Shown here piece after piece: positions 514 through 53,047 of a stretch of DNA of 64,000 nucleotides (position 1 is the stretch's first letter; each line of letters opens with the position of its first letter). A model generated the notes under the pieces. That model did not search any database. It had not been told where the DNA came from and saw nothing but the letters and a program-made list of their open reading frames with translations. Source of the stretch: Candidatus Omnitrophota bacterium (GTDB taxonomy: Bacteria; Omnitrophota; Gorgyraeia; Gygaellales; Profunditerraquicolaceae); the NCBI GenBank assembly GCA_016867115.1, contig VGKG01000004.1:6536-70535 (forward strand), written 5' to 3'. The translations under genes and the position numbers were made by a program.

Positions 514-1491
514 CTATCGTTTCCCGTACCTGATTCTCGGGTCGACATAGGCATAGGCGATATCGGCGATGAGGTTGCCCAGCATGGTCAGGATCGCCAC
601 CAGCACCACCTCGGCCATGATCAGGTTCAAATCGCGCATCGTCGCCGCCTCGTAAAAAAGCCTGCCGATTCCCGGAATGGCAAAAATCGATTCAAAGATG
701 ATGCTGCCGCCAAGGAGCCCGGGAATAGAAAGCCCGATGATGGTCACGATCGGCAGGACAGCGTTACGCAGCGCGTGTTTATAGATCACCGTGGCCTCGC
801 TTAATCCCTTTGCCCGGGCAGTATAAATGTAGGGCTGATTCATGGCTTCGATCATGTTCGAACGCATGTAGCGCGATACTCCCGCAAAACCCCCGAGGCT
901 TGAGACCAGGACCGGCAGGAACATGTGCCTGCCCAGGTCCCAGAGCTTCTTCCACCAGGGAAAATATTCGAAATCAAGCGAGGCAATCCCTGAGATAGGA
1001 AGTAAGCCTAAATTAATGCAGAATAACTGCATCAGGAGCAGGGCAAGCCAGAAGGTGGGTGCTGCAAATAAAAGGAACATAGTTAAGGCGGATGCGTTGT
1101 CAAAGAAAGTCCCTTCTTTTAAGGCGCACTTTATTCCCCAGGGAAGGGCGATGGCAAAGATAAACAACAGGGAAAGGATGTTGATGGCCAGGGTCACCGG
1201 AAGGCGCTCGATTATCTTTTCCGTCACCGGCCTGCCGTCGCTGAAAGAGCGCCCGAAATTGAAGCGCGAGAGGTTCTTCAGCCAGTTGAGGTACTGGATG
1301 TGCAGGGGTTTATCAAAACCCTCTAATTTTTCCAGCCGCCTGATCTCCTCCAGGGAGATCTTGGGGTTAAGCGAATATTGCAGCATTACCGGCTTTCCCG
1401 GCGCAAGCTTGATCACCAGGAAGCTTAAGACGGTTATCCCCAGAAGCATCGGGATTATCCCCAGTAATCTGCGTACAATATAGGTTAGCAT
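514..1491 (-). CDS. ABC transporter permease, OppB/DppB family
   Basis: 325 aa. The N-terminus MLTYIVRRLLGIIPMLLGITVLSFLVIKLAPGKP is the canonical OppB/DppB start. It has multiple TM segments and is adjacent to SBP and OppC-like genes. Confidence 0.85.
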   Translation of the reverse strand: MLTYIVRRLLGIIPMLLGITVLSFLVIKLAPGKPVMLQYSLNPKISLEEIRRLEKLEGFDKPLHIQYLNWLKNLSRFNFGRSFSDGRPVTEKIIERLPVTLAINILSLLFIFAIALPWGIKCALKEGTFFDNASALTMFLLFAAPTFWLALLLMQLFCINLGLLPISGIASLDFEYFPWWKKLWDLGRHMFLPVLVSSLGGFAGVSRYMRSNMIEAMNQPYIYTARAKGLSEATVIYKHALRNAVLPIVTIIGLSIPGLLGGSIIFESIFAIPGIGRLFYEAATMRDLNLIMAEVVLVAILTMLGNLIADIAYAYVDPRIRYGKR

Positions 1492-1497
1492 TTGCTT

Positions 1498-3093
1498 TTA
1501 ATTTGAAATTTTAAATTTGGAATTTGGATTTACCACTTTATATTTTTGTTCAGCTAAGGGCACCCACCAATCAATGAAGTTATAACCGATGCCGATGGGC
1601 GCCAGCCTGATCCCCTTAAAACGGCTGTGTAAAACAGAAAGTCCGTCCGGGACATAGATAAACATGTACGGCTGCTCCTCATAGAGTATCTCATGGATGC
1701 GCTGGTAGCAGGCCTTTCTCTTTTCGACATCGAAGTACCTGCGGCCTTCGGTAAGGAGCCTGTCCACTTCCTCGTTTTTATAGGTGACAAAGTTGAACTG
1801 GCCTTCGGCTGTCTTTGAAGAATGGAAGATATCGTAGTTATCCGGCTCGCGGGGAAGGGCCCAGCCCAGGAGCACGGCTTCGAAATTGCGCTTGTCGATG
1901 TTCTCGGTAAGAAATACGCTCCACTCAGAGACCCTAACGCTCACTTTTATGCCTATATCTTTAAGGCGGCGCTGGATGATCTGGGCAACTTTAAGCCGCT
2001 CTTCATTGCCCTGGTTGGTGATAATGGTGAACTCAAAAGCCTTGCCCTCTTTATCCAGCCAGCCATCGTTATCCGAATCGGCCCAGCCCGCCTCTTTCAG
2101 CAACTCTCTGGCTTTTTGGGGGTCAAAAGCCGCAGGCCCCACTTTCGGATTATAGGCCCAGGTGTCCGGCAGATATGGCCCGGTACAGACCCTGCCCAAT
2201 CCCAATAAAACAATACCGATGATCTCATTCTTGTCTACGGCGTAATTCAGGGCCTGGCGCACCCGTTTATCAGAAAACTTCGGGTCGCGCAGATTGTATC
2301 CTAAATAGGTATAGGCGAAACTGGGCAGCCGGAATTTCTGATAATATTTTTTAAAGAACGGTGTATCGGTCTGGCGGGTATACTGCAAAGGGGACAGGCC
2401 GGCCGAATCCACGCCCTGCGTCTGTAATTCCAGGAATATCGTCGATTCATCGGGGATGACCCGGTAGATATAGCGGTCGATGTAAGGCCGGTGTTCGAAA
2501 TAACCGTGATTCGAAACCAGCTCTATCTTCTCCTGTGTCCTCCAGGACTTGAACTTATAGGGGCCGGTCCCTATGGGATGGCGGGAGAACCTGGAGGTAT
2601 TCAAGTCCTCGCGCTCAAGAAGGTGCCTGGGAATCACCGACATCCCCCAGCTGCTTAAAGCCGGAGCAAAAGGCTCTTTATAAGTCACCTTGACCGTATA
2701 ATCATCGATCACCTCTAATGACTTTATCCGCTCAAAATCGCCTCCGTAGGGCGTCTTGACCTTGGGGTCGATAAGCTTCTGATAAGTGAACTCCACATCA
2801 TGCGCGCTAAAGCGGTGTCCGTCATGCCATAAGACATTCTTTCTTAAATGGAAGATGATCACCAGGTTATGATCCCTGATCTCCCAGCTCTCAGCCAGAT
2901 CGCCGATAAGATTGACGTCTTTATCGTATTTGACCAGGCCGTTAAAGATGAGGCCGGCGACTTCGCTTGAGGGGACATCCGAAGCCAAAAGCGGGATGAG
3001 GTTGCGGGCATCGCCGATAGAGGCGCTGACTATGGCGTCCCCGTAATCTTCGGCCAAGGCCGCGGCGGCGGATAAAAATAAAAAGACTGCCAT
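1498..3093 (-). CDS. ABC transporter substrate-binding protein, family 5 (peptide/nickel OppA/DppA-like)
   Basis: Large SBP with signal peptide MAVFLFLSAAAALAEDY and length and motifs typical of SBP_bac_5. I prefer the ATG at 3093. An in-frame GTG at 3174 would add a 27-aa basic extension overlapping secG and is considered less likely. Confidence 0.8.
   Translation of the reverse strand: MAVFLFLSAAAALAEDYGDAIVSASIGDARNLIPLLASDVPSSEVAGLIFNGLVKYDKDVNLIGDLAESWEIRDHNLVIIFHLRKNVLWHDGHRFSAHDVEFTYQKLIDPKVKTPYGGDFERIKSLEVIDDYTVKVTYKEPFAPALSSWGMSVIPRHLLEREDLNTSRFSRHPIGTGPYKFKSWRTQEKIELVSNHGYFEHRPYIDRYIYRVIPDESTIFLELQTQGVDSAGLSPLQYTRQTDTPFFKKYYQKFRLPSFAYTYLGYNLRDPKFSDKRVRQALNYAVDKNEIIGIVLLGLGRVCTGPYLPDTWAYNPKVGPAAFDPQKARELLKEAGWADSDNDGWLDKEGKAFEFTIITNQGNEERLKVAQIIQRRLKDIGIKVSVRVSEWSVFLTENIDKRNFEAVLLGWALPREPDNYDIFHSSKTAEGQFNFVTYKNEEVDRLLTEGRRYFDVEKRKACYQRIHEILYEEQPYMFIYVPDGLSVLHSRFKGIRLAPIGIGYNFIDWWVPLAEQKYKVVNPNSKFKISN
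1500..1530. repeat. Second copy of the palindromic AT-rich 11-mer pair (AATTTGAAATT-tta-AATTTGGAATTTGG) at the oppA-3'/oppB-5' junction
   Basis: Read directly. The match to 50134-50164 is in reverse-complement orientation. Confidence 0.4.
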
Positions 3094-3106
3094 TATGAGT
3101 AGCAGT

Positions 3107-3136
3107 CTTGACCTTGTGACCTTGTGACTTTGTGAC
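3107..3136. repeat. Tandem 8-bp direct repeats, CTTG(TG)AC x about 4 (minus-strand GGTCACAA), between secG stop and the oppA-like start
   Basis: Read directly: cttgac cttgtgac cttgtgac tttgtgac with period 8. Confidence 0.6.
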
Positions 3137-3160
3137 CTGAAGACTATTGTTTTTCTTCTA

Positions 3161-3541
3161 CTATGGCGTCTCACCCTTTTGGGCTTCTGGTTTAGGTGCG
3201 GATTCTGCCTTGGGGGCCTCGGGCTTAGGAGCCTCTGCCTTTGGGGCTTCTGCCTTCGGCGCTTGCGTGGCTGCCGATGCAGCGGATTCCGGCGGCCTCT
3301 GGCGCATGAGGCTCTTGCTCTGCTTTATGGAAAGAAGCGCCAGGGATAAACAGGTGAAAAAGAAAATAATGGAGAGCACGGTGGTAAAACGCGTGAGGAA
3401 CACATTGGTCCTGGTGCCGAACATGGATTCGACTCCGGAGAAGCTCTCGACCAGGCCGCCGCCCCTTCCCCTCTGTATGAGCACCAGGATTATCAGCAAA
3501 ACACACACCAGTATATGCACTCCTATGACCAAAGCCATCAT
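3161..3541 (-). CDS. secG: Preprotein translocase subunit SecG
   Basis: LLIILVLIQRGRGGGLVESFSG...MFG...FLTRFTTVLSIIFFF matches the SecG pattern (LxQxGKGGG..FG..FLxRxT). It has a C-terminal low-complexity APKAE repeat tail and sits downstream of tpiA, as in many bacteria. Confidence 0.8.
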   Translation of the reverse strand: MMALVIGVHILVCVLLIILVLIQRGRGGGLVESFSGVESMFGTRTNVFLTRFTTVLSIIFFFTCLSLALLSIKQSKSLMRQRPPESAASAATQAPKAEAPKAEAPKPEAPKAESAPKPEAQKGETP

Positions 3542-4311
3542 TTGACTACCTCGCTTGCTTTCCTGATGATCTCGCTAAAGGAATCGGCCCTTAGACTTGC
3601 ACCCCCCACTAGCGCTCCGTCGATATCCGGCTGAGCTACCAGATCGAAGGCATTCTCCGGCTTTACGCTTCCGCCGTACTGGATGCGCAATTCGTCCGCC
3701 GTTTCTCTATTATACATCTTCGCCAGTAAATCGCGAATATATTTCTGCGCATCCTCGGCCTGTTCCTTTGTGGCGGTCTTTCCGGTCCCGATCGCCCATA
3801 CCGGTTCATAGGCGATCACCACACTGGTTACGTCATCGGCGCCTATATCTTTTAAGCCGTTCTGCACATGATCATCCAGCACTTTAAAGGTGAGCCCCTT
3901 TTCTCTCTCTGCCAGGGTCTCGCCCACGCACATGATCGGCAATAATCCGCAGGCCAGGGCTGCCTTTACCTTTTTATTCACCGTTTCGTTTGTTTCATGA
4001 AAATACTGCCTGCGTTCGGAATGCCCGACGATCACATATTTGCAGCCGGCATCAAGGAGCATGGAGCATGAGACCTCTCCGGTGAAAGCCCCTTCCTTTT
4101 CCCAGTAGACATCCTGGGCGCCGAGCTGTATTCCTGAATCGCCGATCACTTCCGAGACTTCGGCCAATGCGGTAAAAGGCGGGCATAAGACCACCTCGAC
4201 GCTTAACTCCTTTAATTTAAAGAGTTCGCGTTTGAGGCCATTGGCCAATTCGATCGCCTCTTTGATGGTCTTGTACATCTTCCAGTTTCCTGCGATTATG
4301 GTCTTACGCAT
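3538..4311 (-). CDS. tpiA: Triose-phosphate isomerase
   Basis: AGNWKM, VIVGHSERR and IAYEPVWAIGTGKTAT motifs. 257 aa. Confidence 0.95.
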   Translation of the reverse strand: MRKTIIAGNWKMYKTIKEAIELANGLKRELFKLKELSVEVVLCPPFTALAEVSEVIGDSGIQLGAQDVYWEKEGAFTGEVSCSMLLDAGCKYVIVGHSERRQYFHETNETVNKKVKAALACGLLPIMCVGETLAEREKGLTFKVLDDHVQNGLKDIGADDVTSVVIAYEPVWAIGTGKTATKEQAEDAQKYIRDLLAKMYNRETADELRIQYGGSVKPENAFDLVAQPDIDGALVGGASLRADSFSEIIRKASEVVK

Positions 4312-4316
4312 AATTC

Positions 4317-4346
4317 GTTCTCTTGTTCTACAGTTCTATGGTTCTA
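4317..4346. repeat. Array of GTTCT(A) hexamers at period 8 (GTTCT, then GTTCTA x3) in the tpiA-upstream intergenic region
   Basis: Read directly: gttct ctt gttcta ca gttcta tg gttcta tgg. It is the inverted counterpart of the TAGAAC array at 4732-4767. Confidence 0.6.
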
Positions 4347-4349
4347 TGG

Positions 4350-4718
4350 TTATTTTAAAATCTGTTCCTGTATATTCTTAATTAAACCATTTATTAATTT
4401 GCTGGTTCTGGTTGCCTGATCATAGATCCTACTAAAATCTTCTTTATCGATCGTCTTCCTGTCTAGAATAACATAGAGATGGCTCTGTACTTCCGTAGCT
4501 GAGCCTCTGGCCATAGTATAGAACTGCTTACTATCCCTAAAAGCATACCTGCCGAAACCTTCGCTTATATTAGCCATCACTGACACAGCTGCTTTTTGAA
4601 TCTGATCCGCTAAACCAAAATCTCTAAAGTTCTTCTTGTCAGTTATGCCATATACTTCATTTACCAGTTTTCTTGCTTCCTGCCAGGCTATTAAATCTTC
4701 AAACTTTTCGATTTTCAT
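4350..4718 (-). CDS. Four-helix-bundle protein (23S rRNA intervening-sequence protein family, TIGR02436-like)
   Basis: 122 aa. MKIEKFEDLIAWQEARKLVNEVYGI...FRDFGLADQIQKAAVSVMANISEGFGR is the hallmark of this family. It is inserted between pgk and tpiA. Confidence 0.8.
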   Translation of the reverse strand: MKIEKFEDLIAWQEARKLVNEVYGITDKKNFRDFGLADQIQKAAVSVMANISEGFGRYAFRDSKQFYTMARGSATEVQSHLYVILDRKTIDKEDFSRIYDQATRTSKLINGLIKNIQEQILK

Positions 4719-4731
4719 TTTTTAAGCTTTT

Positions 4732-4767
4732 GAACTTTAGAACCAACGAACTTTAGAACTATAGAAC
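4732..4767. repeat. Array of TAGAAC/GAAC repeats (gaac tt tagaac caac gaac tt tagaac ta tagaac), inverted relative to the 4317-4346 array
   Basis: Read directly. Together the two arrays bracket the four-helix-bundle gene as imperfect inverted repeats. Confidence 0.6.
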
Positions 4768-4773
4768 TATCGA

Positions 4774-5955
4774 TTACTTTTCGGAAAGAGCCGCGATTCC
4801 TGGTAAGCTCTTTCCCTCAAGAAATTCTAAAGAAGCGCCGCCGCCGGTAGAGATATGCGTCATCTTATCTTCCAGTTTGAACTTGGCGACCGCTGCCGCG
4901 GTATCCCCGCCGCCGATGATCGTGGTTGCTTTCAATGTACTGATGAACTTGGCGACCTCAAGTGTCCCCGCGCTAAAGGCATCCATCTCAAAGATGCCGA
5001 GGGGTCCGTTCCAGACGATCGTCTTTGCGGACTTAAGCTTATCCTCAAAGAGCAGGATTGTCTTGGGCCCGATATCCACGGCGATCTTTCCCGCGGGGAC
5101 ATCCTCTCCTGAGATCTCAGCCGCGGCATTCGCATCAATATTATCCACTACCACGTTGTCTACGGGAAGGAGTATCTCCTTATTCAGGGACCCTGCCTTT
5201 TCGAGAATGGATTTAGCCAGGTCTAATTTATCCTTTTCAAGCTTGGAGTTGCCGATCTCTTTGCCCTTGGCCTTTAAAAAAGTATAGGCCATGCCGCCGC
5301 CGATCAGGATCGCATCGCACTCGGGAAGCAGATTCTCAATCACTCCGATCTTATCCGAGACCTTAGCGCCCCCTAAGATGACCATGAACGGCCGGCCGGG
5401 ATTCTGCACGGCATTCCCCAGGTACCGGATCTCTTTGTCCAGAAGAAAACCCGCCGCGGCTTTCAGGTAATGCGTAACTCCCTCGGTCGAGGCATGCGCG
5501 CGGTGGGCGGTGCCGAAGGCATCATTAATATAGACGTCGGCAAGCGAGGCAAGCTGCCTGGCGAAACCGGCGTCATTGGCCTCTTCTTCGGGGTGGAACC
5601 TTAAATTCTCAAGCAAAACCACCCTCTCTTTTGCGCCGTCTATCTCTTTCTTCACGCTGTCGCCTACGCAGTCATTGACGAACCTGACCGGCTCGCCGAT
5701 TAATTCCTGGAGCCTTGCGGCTACGGGCCTGAGGCTGTATTTCTCCACCACCTTGCCGTCCGGCCTGCCCAGATGGCTCATCAGGACCAGTTTCTTTGCT
5801 CCGCTCTGAAGGATGTATTTTATGGTCGGCAGGGTCGCCCGGATACGCGTATCATCGGTAATCTTAAGATCCGCGTCCTGCGGCACGTTAAAATCCGCCC
5901 GCACCAGCACCGTTTTACCCTTTAGATCCAGGTCCTTTAAGCTCATCTTCGCCAT
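4774..5955 (-). CDS. pgk: Phosphoglycerate kinase
   Basis: 393 aa with conserved LMSHLGRP and GGGASLE and full-length similarity pattern. A strong SD AAGGAGG lies 5 nt upstream. Confidence 0.95.
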
Positions 5956-5992
5956 GAGGCCTCCTTAAGTAACCCTGAAATTTGGAAGTCTT

Positions 5993-6021
5993 AATATATA
6001 CTAATCCCGCGGCTTTGTCAA
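5993..6021 (-). promoter_or_regulatory. Putative sigma70 promoter for pgk (-35 TTGACA at 6016-6021; -10 TATATT/TATATA at 5993-6000)
   Basis: The minus strand reads gggTTGACAaagccgcgggattagtaTATATTaag with 17-nt spacing, followed by about 30 nt of leader and the SD AAGGAGG before the pgk ATG. Confidence 0.5.
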
Positions 6022-6126
6022 CCCTCTTTAAATGAGCAGACACTTTACGGAGCGAGTGGAACGAGCGAACGTAAAGTGTAGCCCCTCAAGGGGCGTCTAG
6101 GCACCTTGCCCTATCGGATGGGCAAG

Positions 6127-6150
6127 TGCGCGCTTGCCGCGCGAATTTTT
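6127..6150 (+). terminator. Candidate plus-strand intrinsic terminator-like hairpin (GCGCG-cttgc-CGCGC followed by gaaTTTTT)
   Basis: A GC stem and T-run read directly on the plus strand. It is preceded by at least three further hairpins (6041-6078, 6083-6094, 6112-6126). No plus-strand gene is evident. Confidence 0.3.
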
Positions 6151-6209
6151 GAGCACAATAATCTTTTATCTAGCGAAATCCCGCGTAAGCGGGAACCCGG
6201 CAAATGCCA

Positions 6210-6234
6210 GCAAAATTTTCAAAGAAAATTTTGC
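6210..6234. promoter_or_regulatory. Perfect 11-bp inverted repeat GCAAAATTTTC-aaa-GAAAATTTTGC (operator-like palindrome)
   Basis: Read directly. It lies 6 nt beyond the stop of the 6240-8567 gene. Confidence 0.35.
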
Positions 6235-6239
6235 GGCGT

Positions 6240-8567
6240 TTATGAGCCGGGACTACTAGCTGAGCCAAAGATAAAGCCGGTCTCCAGTTTTCTATAGTTC
6301 GACAAAAGCGGAATCAGGCTGCTTAGCTTAAAGAGCACGATTACCAGGCATGTGTTAAAGAGCCCCAGGACCGGCAAAAGGATGACCCCGCCCAGTATCC
6401 CGGCAAGCCAACCGCCCATCAGGTCCGAAGCATAGAGGATGCCGGCAGTGGCGCCTACTTCTTTTTGCGTCTCAAGGTAGAGCCTGCTGGCCAGGGGAAA
6501 CTCAAGCCCCATCAGTATTCCTGAGATCAGAAATAAAAGGATAAAAGCTAAAACAGTGTAATACCCGGGCAAGAAGCCGCGCGTAATGACGCCGGCCATG
6601 ATCAGGACAAAAGCGACGAGAATGAACTCGATCAGCGCAAATGCGCGCAGCCCCTTTATCGCGCTCTTCAGGCCCGCGCTGATCAGGATGCTGCCTAAAG
6701 CGATACCGGTCATGAAGATGCTGATCAGTATGCCGATGTGGCGGTAGAGATACCCGTAAAAGACCTGGAAGGCAAATATCAGAATAAGGTTCGCCAGCAT
6801 CCCGAAAAAACCGGTGGTAAAAATGCTGTAGGCCACGATGCGTAATCCCTTCCGGCTGCAGCGTAAAAAAGCAGACAGCGCCAAAGTCAATAAAAGGAAC
6901 CCCAAAGCAACTGTTGCCAGATTCAGGCCCGCAAAGGATTGCAGAAAAGCGCCCATAGACGGGGAAAACTTCTTATTCCAGAGCACCAGAGTCTCAAAGA
7001 CGGCGATCGGAGCGAAGTCCCGGTTGACTTTTTTAGTCGCGCCGGAGATTGACTGGTTGAACCACTCGACCCATTTTCTGTCCAGCCTGTAGGCAAGATA
7101 GTCAGGCACCAGGAGCCCGGGCTTGATGCGGCGTGAGGCGAGCCTCTCCGAGACCCCTTTTACCGTCAAGTCTATCACGCGGGGAGAATCGCTGGCCAGG
7201 AACATATTATAATCTCCGGGGATTACGCGCACAAACGGGAATGCACTTTTTAGCGCCGACAATACGGAGGCATTGGTGTCCCGCAGCTGCCTGCTTAAAT
7301 GCACCAGCGACCCCGGCAGGCAAAAGGCCAGTATCCCTCCCGGATTCAGCCTCTTCTTTATCAGGCCGAAGGACTCCGCCGTAAAGAGGCGGTTAGTTGA
7401 AAGGTCGCGCGGGACGGTAAAACCGATCAGGGCCGCGTCATAGGTATCCGGGCTGATGCGCAGGTAAAAACGGCCGTCGGTATTGACGATCCTGACCCTG
7501 CGGTCAGAGAGCTCCCTGAGTGTCAGCGCAGTGGGGTACCGGGCGAGCATCTCGATCAGCAGCGGGTCAAGCTCGGCATAATGCAGCCTCTCTACCGGAT
7601 GCCCCAGTATCTCGCTGATCAGGCCTCCTGCCCCTCCTCCTATGACCAGGATGTCCCGGGGGTCATCGTGGAACAAAAGCGGGAGATTGCCGAACTCCTG
7701 CACAAAGGCGATATCCGGGTAAGGCGCGCTGATTGCCGGCACGCCGTTATAGAAGAAAGTATACTGCTCAAGCTGGCGCGTTACCGTGATATTGCCGTAA
7801 ATGGAATTCTGATAGTCCAGGACCTGCTGATTCTGCCACTGCCTGCTTATTGACAAACGCTCAAGGTCGTCTATGCCTTTGGCCAGGATAAAGACGGCGA
7901 ATATAGCAAGCAGGAACAAGGCGGCGAAACGGTAAAGCCCGCGCAGGGGCCTGAAAAAAATAAAGCAGATCAGCAGATTAAGGAGGCTGACCATGAACGC
8001 GACCTGAAAGGAATTGAAATAGGGGATGAAGATATAGGTAAGCATTATCCCGCCCAGCATCGTGCCGGCGGTCTCCCAGGCATAGACCCGGCTGATGCTT
8101 AATACCGGCTCGTTCTGTTGCGCGGGATATATCTTGCAGGCGAGGCTAAAAAGGGCGCCGTGACAGGCTGCTACCGGCAGGTTCGCCAGCAGCGAGATGA
8201 TGAAGACGCCCCAGAGGCCGACCGCTTCTCCCTGGGGGATGCCGGCTGCCACTTTGGCGATACGGGCAAGATAGATCGCAGCCGGAAGACAGAGCGCAAA
8301 TAGCGCCTGAAGAATAAAGAAGACGTCTATCTTCTTCCTTATCCCGGCGATTGCCCTGCCGAGGCTGAATACCCCCAGCGCTTCAGAGAGTATCCAGTTC
8401 GCCAGGATCACTCCGATGGTCAGCTCATTGCCGTAGAAGACGACCAGCAGCTCCCGCAGCAGGAGCACCTGCGCCACCACCCCGCTTAAACCGATGATCA
8501 GGATCGTAAAAATATACATTTTGACGGGATTAAACCTGAATCTGAAAATGCCGAAGGCAAAACCCAA
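6240..8567 (-). CDS. Membrane-fused spermidine synthase-like (polyamine aminopropyltransferase-like) protein
   Basis: 775 aa. Many TM helices flank a central Rossmann segment, VLVIGGGAGGLISEILGH ... YDAALIGFTVPRDLSTNRLFTAESF, typical of spermidine/spermine synthase-like domains fused to membrane modules. Confidence 0.7.
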   Translation of the reverse strand: MGFAFGIFRFRFNPVKMYIFTILIIGLSGVVAQVLLLRELLVVFYGNELTIGVILANWILSEALGVFSLGRAIAGIRKKIDVFFILQALFALCLPAAIYLARIAKVAAGIPQGEAVGLWGVFIISLLANLPVAACHGALFSLACKIYPAQQNEPVLSISRVYAWETAGTMLGGIMLTYIFIPYFNSFQVAFMVSLLNLLICFIFFRPLRGLYRFAALFLLAIFAVFILAKGIDDLERLSISRQWQNQQVLDYQNSIYGNITVTRQLEQYTFFYNGVPAISAPYPDIAFVQEFGNLPLLFHDDPRDILVIGGGAGGLISEILGHPVERLHYAELDPLLIEMLARYPTALTLRELSDRRVRIVNTDGRFYLRISPDTYDAALIGFTVPRDLSTNRLFTAESFGLIKKRLNPGGILAFCLPGSLVHLSRQLRDTNASVLSALKSAFPFVRVIPGDYNMFLASDSPRVIDLTVKGVSERLASRRIKPGLLVPDYLAYRLDRKWVEWFNQSISGATKKVNRDFAPIAVFETLVLWNKKFSPSMGAFLQSFAGLNLATVALGFLLLTLALSAFLRCSRKGLRIVAYSIFTTGFFGMLANLILIFAFQVFYGYLYRHIGILISIFMTGIALGSILISAGLKSAIKGLRAFALIEFILVAFVLIMAGVITRGFLPGYYTVLAFILLFLISGILMGLEFPLASRLYLETQKEVGATAGILYASDLMGGWLAGILGGVILLPVLGLFNTCLVIVLFKLSSLIPLLSNYRKLETGFIFGSASSPGS

Positions 8568-46509: not shown

Positions 46510-46851
46510 TTATAAGTCTCCTTTGGCTTTTTTTGCGGCCAGATAATCCCATTCCTGTTTCATCAGGTAATACTCTTCTTCTTTCTTTTTGAGGAAGATT
46601 TGCATCAGCTGCATTTTATGCTCAAATCCTTCCTTGGTGAGATGATAGTGTATCTTGCTCATCTTGCCGGGTTTGGTAGTAAAATTTTTAATCTCGACAA
46701 AGCCTTTTTCGATGAGGTTCTTTATGAGGTAATTGGTTTTACCTAAAGAAATGCCGATCCGGTCAGAGAGCTGCCGCTGGGTAAGGCTCGGCTCTGCCTC
46801 GATATGACGGATAATATGCAGGGTTTCTTCTTTTGGGGGTTGTTCAAGCAT
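46510..46851 (-). CDS. EPS-associated MarR-family (winged-helix) transcriptional regulator
   Basis: 113 aa. LTQRQLSDRIGISLGKTNYLIKNLIEKGFVEI helix-turn-helix. It is the first gene of the island. Confidence 0.7.
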   Translation of the reverse strand: MLEQPPKEETLHIIRHIEAEPSLTQRQLSDRIGISLGKTNYLIKNLIEKGFVEIKNFTTKPGKMSKIHYHLTKEGFEHKMQLMQIFLKKKEEEYYLMKQEWDYLAAKKAKGDL

Positions 46852-46858
46852 TGAACAG

Positions 46859-46886
46859 ATTATAGCCTTTTTATGCTAAGTGTCAA
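46859..46886 (-). promoter_or_regulatory. Near-consensus sigma70 promoter (TTGACA-16 nt-TATAAT) ending 7 nt upstream of the MarR-like ATG, suggesting a leaderless mRNA
   Basis: The minus strand reads ccTTGACActtagcataaaaaggcTATAATctgttcaATGcttgaa. -35 is at 46881-46886 and -10 at 46859-46864. Confidence 0.5.
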
Positions 46887-46958: not shown

Positions 46959-46989
46959 TAAAAACGGATGGGAACATATACCCACCCGT
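46959..46989 (-). terminator. Rho-independent terminator downstream of gap
   Basis: The minus strand reads ACGGGTGGG-tatatgtt-CCCATCCGT followed by TTTTTAT. The stem is 9 bp with one mismatch. Confidence 0.6.
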
Positions 46990-47015
46990 TCAACTGCTGA
47001 ACAATAATTATCTGC

Positions 47016-48080
<1,065 letters not shown>

Positions 48081-48101: not shown

Positions 48102-49097
48102 TTATTTTTCCCGAAGATACCTTGCGGCCAGTTCAGGCGGGGTGGGAACAAGGTAAAAACCTGAGCCCCATTCAAAACCTGCCACGCGCATCAGCTTTGG
48201 CATAAACTCGATGTGCCAGTGATAACCCTCTGTCCCGGATTCGCCGTTTACGGGTGCAGAATGGATGATGAAATTGTACGACAGGCCCGCAAATATGCCC
48301 TTGAACCTGGTGATAGTCTCCTTAAGCATGGAGGCCAGGGACGGCACCTCCTCCGCCAGGATATTGCAGAAACTATTGCTGTGTTTCTTGGGCATGATCC
48401 AGGCCTCAAAAGGGAAACGCGAAATAAAGGGGCAGAAAGAAAGGAAATGTTTATTCTCTGAAATGATCCTCTCCTTATCCTGGATCTCCTGCCTGACTAT
48501 ATCGCAATAGATGCAGCGCTCGCGGTACTCGTAGTAATTCTGCGCCCCCTTGATCTCTTCTGCGGCGCTCTTAGGCACCATGGGCAGCGCGATGATCTGG
48601 GTGTGCGGATGCTCAAGCGATGCCCCGGCTGCCGCTCCGAAGTTCTTAAAGATCATAATGTATTTAAAACGCTTATCCCTGGCCAGGTCAAGCGCCCTGC
48701 GGCAGTACATGAGCAGGAAGTTCTCCACTTCCTGGTCAAGGAGGTCAGATATGTCTTTCTGATGGTAGGGGGTCTCGATCAACACCTCATGCGCGCCGAC
48801 GCCATTTGACATATCGTAAATGCCCAGCCCGCGCCTGTCCAGCTCCCCTTCGATCTGCAGCGCCGGGAACTTATTGGAGACAACGCGCACCTGCCAGCCC
48901 GGGGTATTGGGGCTGGTGTGCGGGTCGCGGATCGCTTCGATCTCGGGAGGGGTCATGGATTCGTTGCCGTAACAGAACGGACAGGCCCCGCCCCGCCAGT
49001 TGAGCGGCTCGTATTCATAATCCTCGGGCCGGTGCGGGTGGTCCGTATCCACGATGACCCAGCGGCCTCCGATGGGGTCTCTCCTCAATTCCGACAT
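48102..49097 (-). CDS. Galactose-1-phosphate uridylyltransferase-like (GalT/HIT superfamily) protein
   Basis: CPFC zinc knuckle and HPHTQI (HxHxQ) active-site motif. 331 aa. Ends 36 nt upstream of gap. Confidence 0.85.
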   Translation of the reverse strand: MSELRRDPIGGRWVIVDTDHPHRPEDYEYEPLNWRGGACPFCYGNESMTPPEIEAIRDPHTSPNTPGWQVRVVSNKFPALQIEGELDRRGLGIYDMSNGVGAHEVLIETPYHQKDISDLLDQEVENFLLMYCRRALDLARDKRFKYIMIFKNFGAAAGASLEHPHTQIIALPMVPKSAAEEIKGAQNYYEYRERCIYCDIVRQEIQDKERIISENKHFLSFCPFISRFPFEAWIMPKKHSNSFCNILAEEVPSLASMLKETITRFKGIFAGLSYNFIIHSAPVNGESGTEGYHWHIEFMPKLMRVAGFEWGSGFYLVPTPPELAARYLREK

Positions 49098-49098
49098 C

Positions 49099-50127
49099 TT
49101 AGACCTCTACCTCTCTTAAAAACTTCGCCGCATCCTCGGGCGTAAGCGGGCAGATATAAAAGCCGGTGCCCCATTCAAAGCCCGCTACGCGCGTCAGGCG
49201 CGGGATGATCTCGATGTGCCAGTGATAATCGTAATCCACGCTCTTCCAGTATCCTGCCTTGCTGGGCCGGCGGAAGGGCGCGGAATGGATCACGTAATTG
49301 TATGCCGGGTCGTTCAGCCCTTTTTTGAGCTTTAAAAGCACCTGTTTCATGATGCGCGCAAGGTCCCTGCGCCGGTCCTGCTCAAGCGCGGTGAAATCGC
49401 AGGAGTGCTTCTTGGGCATGATCCAGACCTCGAAGGGGAACCTTGAGGCAAAGGGCGAGATGGCGATGAAACCGTCAATATCCAGGATCATCCTGTCTTT
49501 TGAGGACATCTCCTGCTTGATGATGTCGCAGAAGACGCAACGCTCGTGATAGTCATAATAAAAGTGGGCGCCCGAAAGCTCTTCTTTCACCCTTTTGGGG
49601 TTGACCGGGGTGGCGATCAGCTGGGATCTTGAATGTTTGACCCTGCCTCCGCCCGAAGACCAGCCGTAATTTTTAAAGACCAGGACGTATTTAAAGCGCC
49701 TGTCCTTCTCAAGATCGAGCATCCGGTCGATGTAGCAGGTAATGACCCTTGAGATCTGCTCTTCGCTAATGTCGGCCATATTGGCGATGTGTTTATTGGT
49801 CTCAATCACCACTTCATGCGCGCCGATGCCGTTCATCAGGTCATAGAGGCCCTTGCCCCTGCGCTCAAGGTCGCCTTCGATCTTAAGGAACGGGGAGATA
49901 CTGGGGACCACCCTTAATTCCCAACCAGGAGAATTGGCAGGGCTGCCTCTTGGCCTGACGGAATAGATTTCGGGGGGGGTGGAGTCTTCCGCGCCTTCGC
50001 AAAAAGGGCAGGCAGTCTCGGCAGGAGCCTCGGCATAAGAACTGCTGAACTGATCGGGCCGTTTTGCCCGCTCAGTAGCGATGATCACCCATCTTCCGAT
50101 AATCGGGTCTTTTCTTAGCTCAGGCAT
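49099..50127 (-). CDS. GalT-family paralog with altered active-site motif (HSRSQ instead of HPHxQ)
   Basis: 342 aa. Collinear with the neighbouring GalT (CPFC knuckle conserved; …VFKNYGWSSGGGRVKHSRSQLIATP aligns to …IFKNFGAAAGASLEHPHTQIIALP). Confidence 0.8.
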   Translation of the reverse strand: MPELRKDPIIGRWVIIATERAKRPDQFSSSYAEAPAETACPFCEGAEDSTPPEIYSVRPRGSPANSPGWELRVVPSISPFLKIEGDLERRGKGLYDLMNGIGAHEVVIETNKHIANMADISEEQISRVITCYIDRMLDLEKDRRFKYVLVFKNYGWSSGGGRVKHSRSQLIATPVNPKRVKEELSGAHFYYDYHERCVFCDIIKQEMSSKDRMILDIDGFIAISPFASRFPFEVWIMPKKHSCDFTALEQDRRRDLARIMKQVLLKLKKGLNDPAYNYVIHSAPFRRPSKAGYWKSVDYDYHWHIEIIPRLTRVAGFEWGTGFYICPLTPEDAAKFLREVEV

Positions 50128-51196: not shown

Positions 51197-53047
51197 TTAC
51201 AGTGGATCAACATCTACGGTCACTATTATACCTGAATGACGAAAGTCTTTTAAGCGCTTTTTCAGGAAGGCGCATCCTTTAACCGGATCTTTTACGCTGA
51301 TGAGCACCTGCCAGTAGTAATTACCCCTTAATTTGGGAGGCTCTCCCCGGGAGGCCTGAAGGACCCTGACCCCCTTTGGCTGCGGGGGCTCTTTCAGCAA
51401 CTCGCGCAGCTTAAGGGCGCTCTCCTCTGTGCGCTCGGCACTCCTTGCGCGCAACTTCACCAGCATCAGGTGCCGGAAGGGAGGAAAGGAGAGTTCCCTC
51501 CTGTGCCTGAGCTCTTCGGTGTAAAACCTCTCCGGGTCCCTCTCCAATAATGCCCTGAAACAATAGTGGCTGTGGAGGCCCGTCTCGATAAGCATCTTCT
51601 TTGCGGTCCTTGCGGCAAGCTGGTCAAGGATCAAGAATGTCCGGGTAGCCGCATCCAGCTCCGGACGGCCGAGGGTATTATCCGCATTCAGGACCGCGGT
51701 CAGGTCAAAATCAGGCGACTGCTGCCTGGTGATAAAACTGGTAGCTACGTAGATATCCGCGTCCCGGTTAAAGCCTTGCGCCCTTTTATCGAGCCTGACA
51801 ATGCGCGCGGACGGAAAAAGGCGCGCCAGTTCGCTCTCTATCTTTTCCGTGCCTGCGCCGCCGAACTTTATATATCCGGAATTACATGCCGGGCACATCT
51901 TCGGCGCCGGCATCCTGAAGCTGCAATAACGGCAGCCCAAGAAGCCCTCCTTGAAATGATAGACCAGGTTTATATCGCAGCGCGGGCACTTAAGCGCAGC
52001 ACCGCATGTCGAGCAGGAGGCGCTGGTGGCAAAACCTTTACGGTTGAGAAAAAGTAGCACTTTTTCGCTGCCGGCCAGGCTTGCGCCGATGGCGTCCTGG
52101 ATATATTTGGATAAAGCGCCTGTCTCCTGTTTTTTCCCGCGGTATCTCCTCTCGGGGCTGATGAGCTTTATTTCGGGACGAGGCGAGACGGATGGGCTGC
52201 GTAAATACCCGATTTTGCCGCTTCTGGCCAGATATACGCTTTCCAGTGAGAATGCACAGCCGGCCAGGACTACCTTTGCGCCTTCAAGCGCAGAACGCAT
52301 AAAGGCAACGCGACGGGCATGATAATGCGGCACCTGGTCCTGCTTGTAAACAGAGGCATCCTCTTCGTCTATGATGATCAGCCCTAAATTGCTTAAGGGT
52401 GCAAATATCGCCGAGCGCACGCCCACCACGACGTTGACCTCGCCGGCCCTGACCTTACGCCAGGTCTCAAGCTCCTCTTTTCCCTTACGCAATAATATCC
52501 CTACGGATGCCCCCGGAAGCAAGCTGAAAGAAGATGCGGCATCAAGGCAGGTATTTATGTCGGGGAACAGGACGATCGCTGACCGGCCGGCCTTTAATGT
52601 CAGGCTGACCTCGCCAAGGTAATGATTGAGCCTGGATTTAAGCGCCGGCTCATAGAGCAGGCCCCCCTGCAAAGCGGCCTTTCTTACGGCGCAACCGCTT
52701 TTGTTTATGCCCGTTACCTGCCTGAACTTCCTTAAGGCCGCAGGCAGCGCCGTCTCAATGGCCTCGCCCCACGAACAGCAATAATAGCGCGATACCTGAT
52801 GAGTCAGCTCAAGCAACCGCGCATCCAGCACAGGATTGTCGTCAAGGAGCCGGGTGATCTTTTTAAGGTTCCTGACCCGGCTTTTGGAGGAGAGCCCGAC
52901 GACATAACCGGTTTTTCTGCGGCGGCAGAAATCCACCTCCACCCGGAAACCCGGATCTATCAAGTCCTGCGATTCTTCGGGGACGATATAATCAAAGGGG
53001 CCTTCAACCGCAAGCCCCAGCACTACCTTCGCATACAGCATGAGCAA
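51197..53047 (-). CDS. priA: Primosomal protein N' (replication restart helicase PriA)
   Basis: Helicase motifs (IIIDEEDASVYKQ) plus the Cys-rich zinc-binding insertion CSTCGAALKCPRCDINLVYH…CRYCSF…CPAC. 616 aa. Confidence 0.85.
   Translation of the reverse strand: MLMLYAKVVLGLAVEGPFDYIVPEESQDLIDPGFRVEVDFCRRRKTGYVVGLSSKSRVRNLKKITRLLDDNPVLDARLLELTHQVSRYYCCSWGEAIETALPAALRKFRQVTGINKSGCAVRKAALQGGLLYEPALKSRLNHYLGEVSLTLKAGRSAIVLFPDINTCLDAASSFSLLPGASVGILLRKGKEELETWRKVRAGEVNVVVGVRSAIFAPLSNLGLIIIDEEDASVYKQDQVPHYHARRVAFMRSALEGAKVVLAGCAFSLESVYLARSGKIGYLRSPSVSPRPEIKLISPERRYRGKKQETGALSKYIQDAIGASLAGSEKVLLFLNRKGFATSASCSTCGAALKCPRCDINLVYHFKEGFLGCRYCSFRMPAPKMCPACNSGYIKFGGAGTEKIESELARLFPSARIVRLDKRAQGFNRDADIYVATSFITRQQSPDFDLTAVLNADNTLGRPELDAATRTFLILDQLAARTAKKMLIETGLHSHYCFRALLERDPERFYTEELRHRRELSFPPFRHLMLVKLRARSAERTEESALKLRELLKEPPQPKGVRVLQASRGEPPKLRGNYYWQVLISVKDPVKGCAFLKKRLKDFRHSGIIVTVDVDPL

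Follow-up and report, generated by a model that had tools for sequence, protein, structure and literature searches.

Two neighbouring genes of the galactose-1-phosphate uridylyltransferase (GalT) family, called gene A and gene B here, lie directly upstream of gap in a 64,000-nucleotide (nt) stretch of contig VGKG01000004.1 from a Candidatus Omnitrophota bacterium; this whole stretch is referred to below as the window. A has lost the nucleophilic His of the family together with its nucleotide-binding motif, and B has lost a basic N-terminal arm that, by homology, a partner chain would supply. The defects of the two proteins are complementary and their charges are swapped, and from this we infer that A and B form an obligate heterodimer that has only one active site and belongs to the class I GalT/ADP-glucose-phosphorylase family of the HIT superfamily, rather than an enzyme beside a free-standing regulatory or dead paralog. 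We give this reading a probability of about 0.68. The features on which the argument is built are as follows.

49099..50127, minus strand: gene A, GalT-family paralog without the nucleophilic His (open reading frame, 342 aa)
48102..49097, minus strand: gene B, GalT-family paralog with all cis motifs intact (open reading frame, 331 aa)
49627..49629, minus strand: Arg167 codon AGA of A, at the nucleophile position (aligned to At5g18200 His186 and E. coli His166)
48603..48605, minus strand: His165 codon CAC of B, the predicted nucleotidyl-accepting nucleophile (aligned to E. coli His166 in H-P-H-G-Q)
50056..50076, minus strand: residues 18-24 of A, T-E-R-A-K-R-P, the intact N-terminal basic arm (column comparison)
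49885..49905, minus strand: residues 75-81 of A, P-S-I-S-P-F-L, the degenerate counterpart of P-N-K-F-P-A-L (column profiles)
49026..49046, minus strand: residues 18-24 of B, T-D-H-P-H-R-P, the degenerate and acidified arm, with a net charge of about -3 to -4

Complementary losses in A and B

The two proteins were compared with their relatives in a locus scan that used one genome per species and returned 80 loci; the comparison set held 28 A, 27 B and 53 single-copy sequences. An earlier note on this DNA, made without database searches, had described the upstream copy as carrying Arg in place of the nucleophilic His and had called for an alignment with GalT and ADP-glucose phosphorylase. Alignment to the solved structures puts Arg167 exactly at that position, and the substitution therefore stands. 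The motif of A is K-H-S-R-S-Q (Arg167) and that of B is E-H-P-H-T-Q (His165). In a HMMER alignment the HSRSQ of A matches the HSHSQ of At5g18200 (1Z84) column for column, and Arg167 occupies the residue that the depositors mutated to Gly in entry 2H39. The HPHTQ of B aligns to the HPHGQ of E. coli, with its His164, His166 and Gln168. A His merely offset in A was ruled out by three independent alignments.

The replacement is old and widespread among the relatives of A. In the 120 closest homologues, which are database clusters at 77-100% identity, the nucleophile position is Arg in 113 and Lys in 4, and 3 fall outside the search pattern; in the A clade (n=28) it is Arg in 25 and His in 3. Six codons encode this Arg across the A lineages (AGA in the window, and CGC, CGT, CGA, CGG and AGG), and such varied codon use points to selection for Arg over a long time. 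The three copies of A that have His (L016 at 5977-7029, L017 at 5977-7029 and L023 at 5983-7014) read F-H-A-H-S-Q or K-H-A-H-T-Q with the codon CAT. They are nested among Arg-bearing A copies in the tree and carry all the other A-specific changes, and their His could be either a retention or a reversion from CGT by a single transition. Farther out, in the 50%-identity clusters, the nucleophile is replaced by S, V, Y, C, I or L; the representatives without His are P0127, P0129, P0134, P0150, P0152, P0160, P0188, P0192, P0195, P0203, P0243 and P0246, with motifs extracted from the alignment, which is uncertain for the most divergent members. The diversity of residues at this position suggests that pseudo-subunits may have arisen repeatedly in the family.

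The other losses in A concern the nucleotide site. The motif P-N-K-F-P-A-L, which corresponds to the nucleotide-site residues Asn77-Asp78-Phe79 of E. coli, has become P-S-[ILV]-x-P-x-L and is lost in 28 of 28 A copies. The A-G-A-S-L-E-H loop is one residue longer in A, the position of its Ser (E. coli Ser161) is taken by R, K, S or another residue, and the Glu that precedes the first His of H-x-H is replaced by Lys or Arg. Gln169 and the His cluster of the second half are kept, as is the C-terminal segment, and each of the 25 A-clade sequences that extend over the arm T-E-R-x-[KR]-[KR]-P has it intact; its basic residues are the equivalents of Arg28, Lys30 and Arg31 in E. coli and of Arg48 and Arg51 in human GALT. 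B presents the reverse picture. Its NKFPAL and AGAS-x-E-H-x-H-[ST]-Q motifs are intact in 27 of 27 copies, and its arm has changed from T-E-R-x-K-R-P to T-D-[H/K/Q/N...]-P-x-x-P. The Arg28 equivalent, at position 20 of the arm, is invariant in the single-copy homologues (53/53); in B it is replaced in nearly all of the 27 copies, surviving in 2, and the equivalents of Lys30 and Arg31 are usually gone too. That B is defective as well, through the loss of its R-x-K-R arm, and that the two defects are complementary with swapped charges, was absent from the earlier note.

The same division was seen beyond the comparison set. In a set of 116 additional homologues, arm loss and nucleophile loss are never combined: 37 of them have a degenerate arm together with a readable H-x-H, and all of these keep the His and NKF, and the 2 with Arg at the nucleophile position both keep the arm. 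By its catalytic loss, its sustained conservation and its obligatory co-occurrence with B, A qualifies as a predicted pseudoenzyme subunit. The earlier note had left two options for A, a non-catalytic paralog or a different chemistry that uses another nucleophile. The former fits the data and the latter is unsupported, since NKF and the loop Ser are lost along with the His. An alternative nucleophile in A was rejected on these losses, on the varied residues of the distant clusters and on the deletion of the catalytic module in the fusion proteins described below.

The losses are accompanied by an exchange of charge. The mean net charge of the N-terminal arm is +1.15 in the single-copy proteins and +1.0 in A, and -3.07 in B; that of the cis loop is -0.8 in the single-copy proteins and -1.0 in B, and +2.4 in A. 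Across the 27 pairs the charge of the A loop and that of the B arm covary (Spearman rho -0.49, p 0.009), and the least acidic B arms are those of the partners of the three His-keeping A copies. Opposite charges would meet at both A:B interfaces and like charges in the homodimers, so the charges would favour A:B and disfavour A:A and B:B. On this reading Arg167 would be part of a basic patch that binds the acidic arm of B, a latch and not a catalyst, and such a role could explain the preference of the A clade for Arg or Lys over other residues at this position.

Natural fusions of the two proteins also exist. P0121, P0271 and P0272 are proteins of 596-599 aa, 52-56% identical to each other, in which an A-like half is followed by a B-like half. 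The A half keeps M-S-E-L-R-K-D...E-R-A-K-R-P and the C-terminal V-A-G-F-E-W-G-T-G-x-Y-I-N-P; about 85 residues, with the zinc knuckle, NKF and G-x-G-A-H-E, are deleted from it, and H-x-H-x-Q is gone. The B half starts at C-P-F-C and has no arm, and it keeps N-K-F-P-A-L, G-x-H-E-V and A-G-A-S-L-E-H-x-H-T-Q; its C-terminal trans segment is drifting, e.g. to E-I-T-G-F-E-R-E-T-E-I-Y. The fusions take the pattern of complementary loss to an extreme. Two of them could be placed on contigs (L081 at 5001-6800, 599 aa, and L082 at 5001-6791, 596 aa). In both located loci the fusion gene lies downstream of tyrS and directly upstream of gap-pgk-tpi-secG, with a gene of the phosphoglucomutase family about 4 kb upstream. 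An AlphaFold2 (AF2) model of P0121 was of only moderate confidence, with a predicted local distance difference test score (pLDDT) of 69.8, a predicted template modelling score (pTM) of 0.62 and trans segments below 50; the A-type sequences aligned on the B half, which left the N half of the model with only three sequences.

Family, fold and distribution of the pair

The full-length sequences of A and B share 46% identity (BLASTP E 3e-118). Both pass the thresholds of the two Pfam half-domains used, GalP_UDP_transf (PF01087) and GalP_UDP_tr_C (PF02744): A scores 32.6 (cut-off 22.1) and 45.6 (cut-off 29.2), and B 39.1 and 61.2. With TIGR00209 (cut-off 102.1) B is above the cut-off at 134.4 and A below it at 99.4, and with the E. 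coli-type NCBIfam model NF008724 (cut-off 448) both are far under, at 148 and 118. The best PDB match of A is 1Z84 (E 4.5e-71, 243 bits), which B matches with an E-value of 8.2e-64 and 219 bits. Structure prediction, proposed in the earlier note as a check, gave A the fold of the family: the AF2 monomer model has a pLDDT of 87.6 and a pTM of 0.89, and Foldseek aligns it with a template modelling (TM) score of 0.91 to 1Z84 (36% structural identity) and of 0.80-0.82 to E. coli and human GalT, to which its structural-alignment identity is about 21-22%. The zinc-knuckle motif CPFC is present in both proteins. A also appears to keep the structural zinc site, namely CxxC, the His of G-x-G-x-H-E and the first His of H-x-H; the predicted ligands C40, C43, H104 and H165 stand in columns that are invariant across A- and B-type sequences. 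By all the sequence tests applied, B classes as a member of the class I GalT/At5g18200 family. A classes as a homologue of the family and not as a member in the catalytic sense, and on its predicted losses it should not be filed there as an enzyme.

The A-type gene stands directly before a B-type gene in 27 loci, all from Omnitrophota or from metagenome-assembled genomes (MAGs) mislabelled within the Planctomycetes-Verrucomicrobia-Chlamydiae (PVC) group; the 28th A copy (L024) is truncated by the edge of its contig. In the database, the window's A is matched best by a protein of 100% identity annotated from a Candidatus Omnitrophica MAG. The gene that follows A-B is gap in 24 of the 27 tandem loci, often with pgk after gap. 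The 53 remaining loci hold a single copy with H-x-H and come from phyla that include Nitrospirota, Zixibacteria, Ignavibacteria and Acidobacteriota, and in none of these 53 loci from other phyla does gap lie beside the single-copy gene. The linkage to gap, which the earlier note had singled out as unusual, is therefore real; as an oddity it does not hold, since it is a stable trait of the Omnitrophota, found in the 24 tandem loci and in both located fusion loci. Upstream, the order glycosyltransferase-priA-(fmt)-A-B is common to many Omnitrophota loci.

In a neighbour-joining tree (distance-based, midpoint-rooted) A and B each form a monophyletic clade, and the two clades mirror each other in their branching. 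A recent tandem duplication was provisionally rejected as the origin of the pair, on the placement of the two with different subfamilies in this tree and because B lacks an insertion that A has in common with about 40% of the single-copy proteins; the A-B pair may not be the product of a simple tandem duplication. A is the more conserved of the two. Of 109 columns with a conservation of at least 90% in the 53 single-copy homologues, A retains 100 and B 90; the mean pairwise identity is 64% in the A clade and 59% in the B clade, with A more conserved in 93% of matched pairs.

A proposed single active site and its alternatives

In class I GalTs and in At5g18200 the active site is completed by the neighbouring subunit (bioRxiv 10.64898/2026.09.13.751320). 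In human GALT, Gln188 contacts Asn97 of its own chain and is close to Arg48 of the other; a proposal cited for the Q188R variant is that it repels Arg48 "from the opposite chain" by charge (PMC5081055). In molecular dynamics of human GALT, Arg48(A) was stably bonded to Phe99(B) across the subunit interface, and Arg51(B) to Asp98(A), where the letters stand for the GALT chains (PMC8513031). These inter-chain contacts indicate that each pocket is completed by the arm of the partner chain. A normal dimer of the family has two sites, each made of the cis elements of one chain (Asn-x-Phe, the Gly/Ser loop and H-x-H-x-Q) and the trans elements of its partner (the N-terminal R-x-K-R arm and the C-terminal sugar-binding segment).

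If this arrangement is transferred by homology to the Omnitrophota pair, the only complete site would be the one that combines the cis elements of B with the trans elements of A. There the nucleotidyl group would be transferred to His165 of B, in a ping-pong reaction of the usual kind. The other site, with the cis elements of A and the trans elements of B, would be doubly degenerate and would now serve as a charge-reversed contact, in which the basic loop of A (Arg167, Lys164 and Arg162) grips the acidic arm of B, holds the heterodimer together and disfavours A:A and B:B. In B:B there would be nucleophiles without arms, and in A:A arms without a nucleophile or a nucleotide site. Either gene expressed alone would probably give an inactive protein.

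Several observations weigh against this heterodimer. The cis and trans elements were assigned by homology with human and E. coli GALT, at an identity of only about 21-22%, and not on the coordinates of At5g18200. The presence of His in three A lineages (L016, L017 and L023) shows that Arg is not indispensable. Unfused B proteins still have a well-conserved C-terminal trans segment, RVAGFEWG[ST]GFY, so that the loss of trans elements in B is partial. The covariation between the charges of the A loop and the B arm ignores shared ancestry, and the neighbour-joining tree groups A with one subfamily of single-copy proteins and B with another.

A different use of the same heterodimer would make A a regulatory subunit, whose basic pseudo-site binds an anionic metabolite (a sugar phosphate, a nucleotide or a glycolytic intermediate) and tunes B allosterically, which is the role of GlgD and of the non-catalytic subunits of plant ADP-glucose pyrophosphorylase. 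The greater conservation of A, the specific maintenance of Arg or Lys at the old nucleophile position, the gain of about three positive charges in the pseudo-site loop, the retained zinc ligands and Gln169 and the probable co-transcription with gap, which is followed by pgk in relatives, are all in its favour. We nevertheless consider it unlikely, because the nucleotide-binding NKF and the loop Ser are gone, because the fusions delete most of the pocket of A, and because the B arm has been acidified about as much as the A loop has become basic, the two covarying in a manner that a salt bridge fits better than an open ligand site. Quite improbable, in our view, is the arrangement of A and B as separate homodimers, with B2 as the enzyme and A2 as a binding protein or the seat of a new chemistry (Arg-assisted displacement or a Lys nucleophile). 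The family is normally homodimeric (bioRxiv 10.64898/2026.09.13.751320), the zinc site, Gln169 and the His cluster of the second half persist in A, and the conservation of Arg/Lys could in principle be catalytic. Against this, the trans Arg found in all 53 single-copy homologues would be missing from B2, and the nucleophile, NKF and the Ser from A2, and like charges would face each other in both. The S, V, Y, C, I or L of the other 50%-identity clusters is a poor match to a conserved new nucleophile, the fusions keep only the trans elements of A, and the strict adjacency and mirrored phylogeny of the two genes do not suit independent proteins either.

The loss of the catalytic His and of the nucleotide-binding motif could also be read as the decay of a functionless duplicate, a pseudogene in the making. 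This we regard as hardly conceivable: the reading frame is intact in 28 lineages and in the 120 database clusters (77-100% identical), A evolves more slowly than B and keeps 100 of the 109 family-conserved columns, and its predicted fold is a confident one. The obligate heterodimer of A and B, with one site completed across the interface, remains the reading that we prefer.

Locus, likely chemistry and comparison with known systems

The surroundings of the pair contain the following features.

47016..48065, minus strand: gap, type I glyceraldehyde-3-phosphate dehydrogenase (349 aa; TIGR01534 453 bits, cut-off 367, and Pfam)
46962..46991, minus strand: terminator-like hairpin with an 11-bp stem and an 8-nt loop, then GUUUUUAU (U-run; RNA fold)
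50161-50132, minus strand: promoter-like TTGAAA-18-AATTAT (consensus scan; weak match)
50215-50188, minus strand: promoter-like TTGCAT-16-TATAAT (found by eye; under the -35 threshold of the scan)

The tandem arrangement given in the earlier note, two GalT/HIT paralogs with gaps of 1 nt and 36 nt and a Shine-Dalgarno sequence before gap, agrees with the coordinates and the spacer. A single nt lies between the TAA stop of A and the ATG of B, and the 36-nt spacer from the stop of B to the ATG of gap holds AGGAGG, 7 nt upstream of the ATG. The co-transcription with gap that had been proposed is probable, in view of the tight spacing and of the hairpin past gap. This hairpin begins 25 nt after the gap stop codon, with a centroid energy of -17.8 kcal/mol, a minimum free energy of -20.5 kcal/mol and a z-score of -3.9, and none of 200 shuffled sequences folds as well. 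With a hairpin terminator after gap, A-B-gap looks like a complete transcription unit. The spacer between fmt and A is 88 nt long and AT-rich; its promoter-like sites are weak consensus matches, and A-B-gap may be transcribed by read-through from priA-fmt. There is an overlap of 25 nt (53023-53047) between the priA open reading frame, which has its TTG start codon at 53047, and the end of the gene upstream of it, which encodes a glycosyltransferase similar to monogalactosyldiacylglycerol (MGDG) synthase.

On the other side of the pair, gap (47016-48065) lies about 41 kb from pgk (4777-5955) and tpi (3541-4311) in the window; in related Omnitrophota pgk comes directly after gap, and in the fusion loci tpi does too. 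The intervening block, 8500-46900, has a GC content of 0.39-0.48 against 0.50-0.55 in the flanks, and Wzy-like, Wzz-like, aminotransferase and epimerase genes are among its minus-strand genes. The block has the appearance of a surface-glycan island that was inserted into a gap-pgk-tpi cluster. A perfect sigma-70 consensus (46859-46886, minus strand; TTGACA, 16 nt, TATAAT, 12/12) is found just upstream of a small winged-helix/MarR-like gene (46510-46851) that heads this island.

The single-copy relatives give an indication of the chemistry. In 36 of the 53 single-copy loci glgA follows directly on the same strand, within a few bases (for example L076 at 3728-5242, L078 at 1454-3631 and L075 at 4541-5866); an enzyme of glycoside hydrolase family 57 (GH57) is encoded nearby in 13/53 and an NTP_transf_4 sugar nucleotidyltransferase in 12/53. 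The glgA and GH57 neighbours point to nucleotide-glucose and glycogen metabolism and not to galactose use, and no galK or galM context was seen in the loci, where the neighbours are glgA/GH57 or gap/pgk. The closest characterised relative is an ADP-glucose phosphorylase and the single-copy relatives lie beside glycogen synthase, so we propose a reaction of the nucleoside-diphosphate-glucose phosphorylase type. The most likely chemistry would be the phosphorolysis of a nucleoside-diphosphate-glucose or its reverse, a proposal that we hold with a confidence well below that of the heterodimer. The automatic annotation of A and B as "galactose-1-phosphate uridylyltransferase" is probably wrong for both. 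Neither glgA nor GH57 was found in the 64-kb window, in which pgk alone was matched.

The linkage to glgA in the single-copy relatives hints at a poorly documented step of bacterial glycogen metabolism; the terms "ADP-glucose phosphorylase" and "histidine triad" do not occur in the accessible part of the 2024 Chem Rev review of prokaryotic alpha-glucan enzymes. A bolder and rather speculative scenario, which we would not expect to hold, is that A:B and the single-copy relatives linked to glgA are the main source of ADP-glucose, made from ADP and glucose-1-phosphate in place of GlgC, and that in Omnitrophota the dead site of A has been put to new use, sensing or latching, to couple this step to lower glycolysis (gap-pgk-tpi). 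If it were true, ADP-glucose would be made without ATP being spent or pyrophosphate released, an unrecognised energy-saving entry to bacterial glycogen synthesis, and A:B would be the first natural heterodimeric enzyme of the HIT family.

The enzymes of the GalT family are known from textbooks as symmetric homodimers whose two active sites are shared, and the mutual need of the two sites has been studied mostly through human disease alleles. If the heterodimer is real, the A-B locus would be a natural asymmetric dimer of the GalT family conserved across a phylum, and it would lay out a route from homodimer to obligate heterodimer by duplication or recruitment, complementary loss, charge swap and fusion with deletion of a module. 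No description of a natural GalT-family heterodimer, of a pseudo-subunit or of a linkage between galT-like genes and glgA was found in the searchable literature, an absence that is not proof.

At5g18200 (PDB 1Z84, 1ZWJ and 2H39) has the same layout as A and B, with a two-lobed HIT-like fold, a CxxC zinc knuckle, F-K-N and H-x-H-x-Q, and its active sites lie between two subunits (bioRxiv 10.64898/2026.09.13.751320), as proposed for A:B. It is a homodimer with two sites and His186 in each, whereas here two different chains would share the work with the His in B only. It uses phosphate to cleave ADP-glucose, by way of a His-AMP intermediate, and releases ADP and glucose-1-phosphate; A and B are likened to it by sequence and fold. 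E. coli GalT (1HXP/1HXQ/1GUP) and human GALT (5IN3) belong to the same family, with PF01087 and PF02744. They are obligate dimers with sites formed from both chains, and their nucleophile, Gln, loop Ser, Asn-x-Phe and Arg28/Arg31 arm map onto B and A; unlike the proposed A:B they are homodimeric, and with an identity of only about 21-22% they are far more distant than At5g18200.

Wild-type/mutant heterodimers of human GALT with the Q188R allele (PMC5081055) resemble A:B in having one crippled chain, with an extra Arg in the H-x-H-x-Q motif and a proposed electrostatic relation to Arg48 of the opposite chain. Q188R is a disease allele for which repulsion was proposed, whereas in A:B the acidic arm of the partner would attract, in an arrangement fixed by evolution. 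The small and large subunits of plant ADP-glucose pyrophosphorylase and the GlgC/GlgD of Firmicutes also pair a catalytic chain with an impaired paralog, encoded beside it or expressed together with it, in glucan and nucleotide-sugar metabolism. They have an unrelated fold, nucleotidyltransferase and left-handed beta-helix, catalyse another reaction, that of ATP with glucose-1-phosphate, and do not form their sites across the interface. In A:B, by comparison, the inactive chain A would contribute directly to the one active site that remains.

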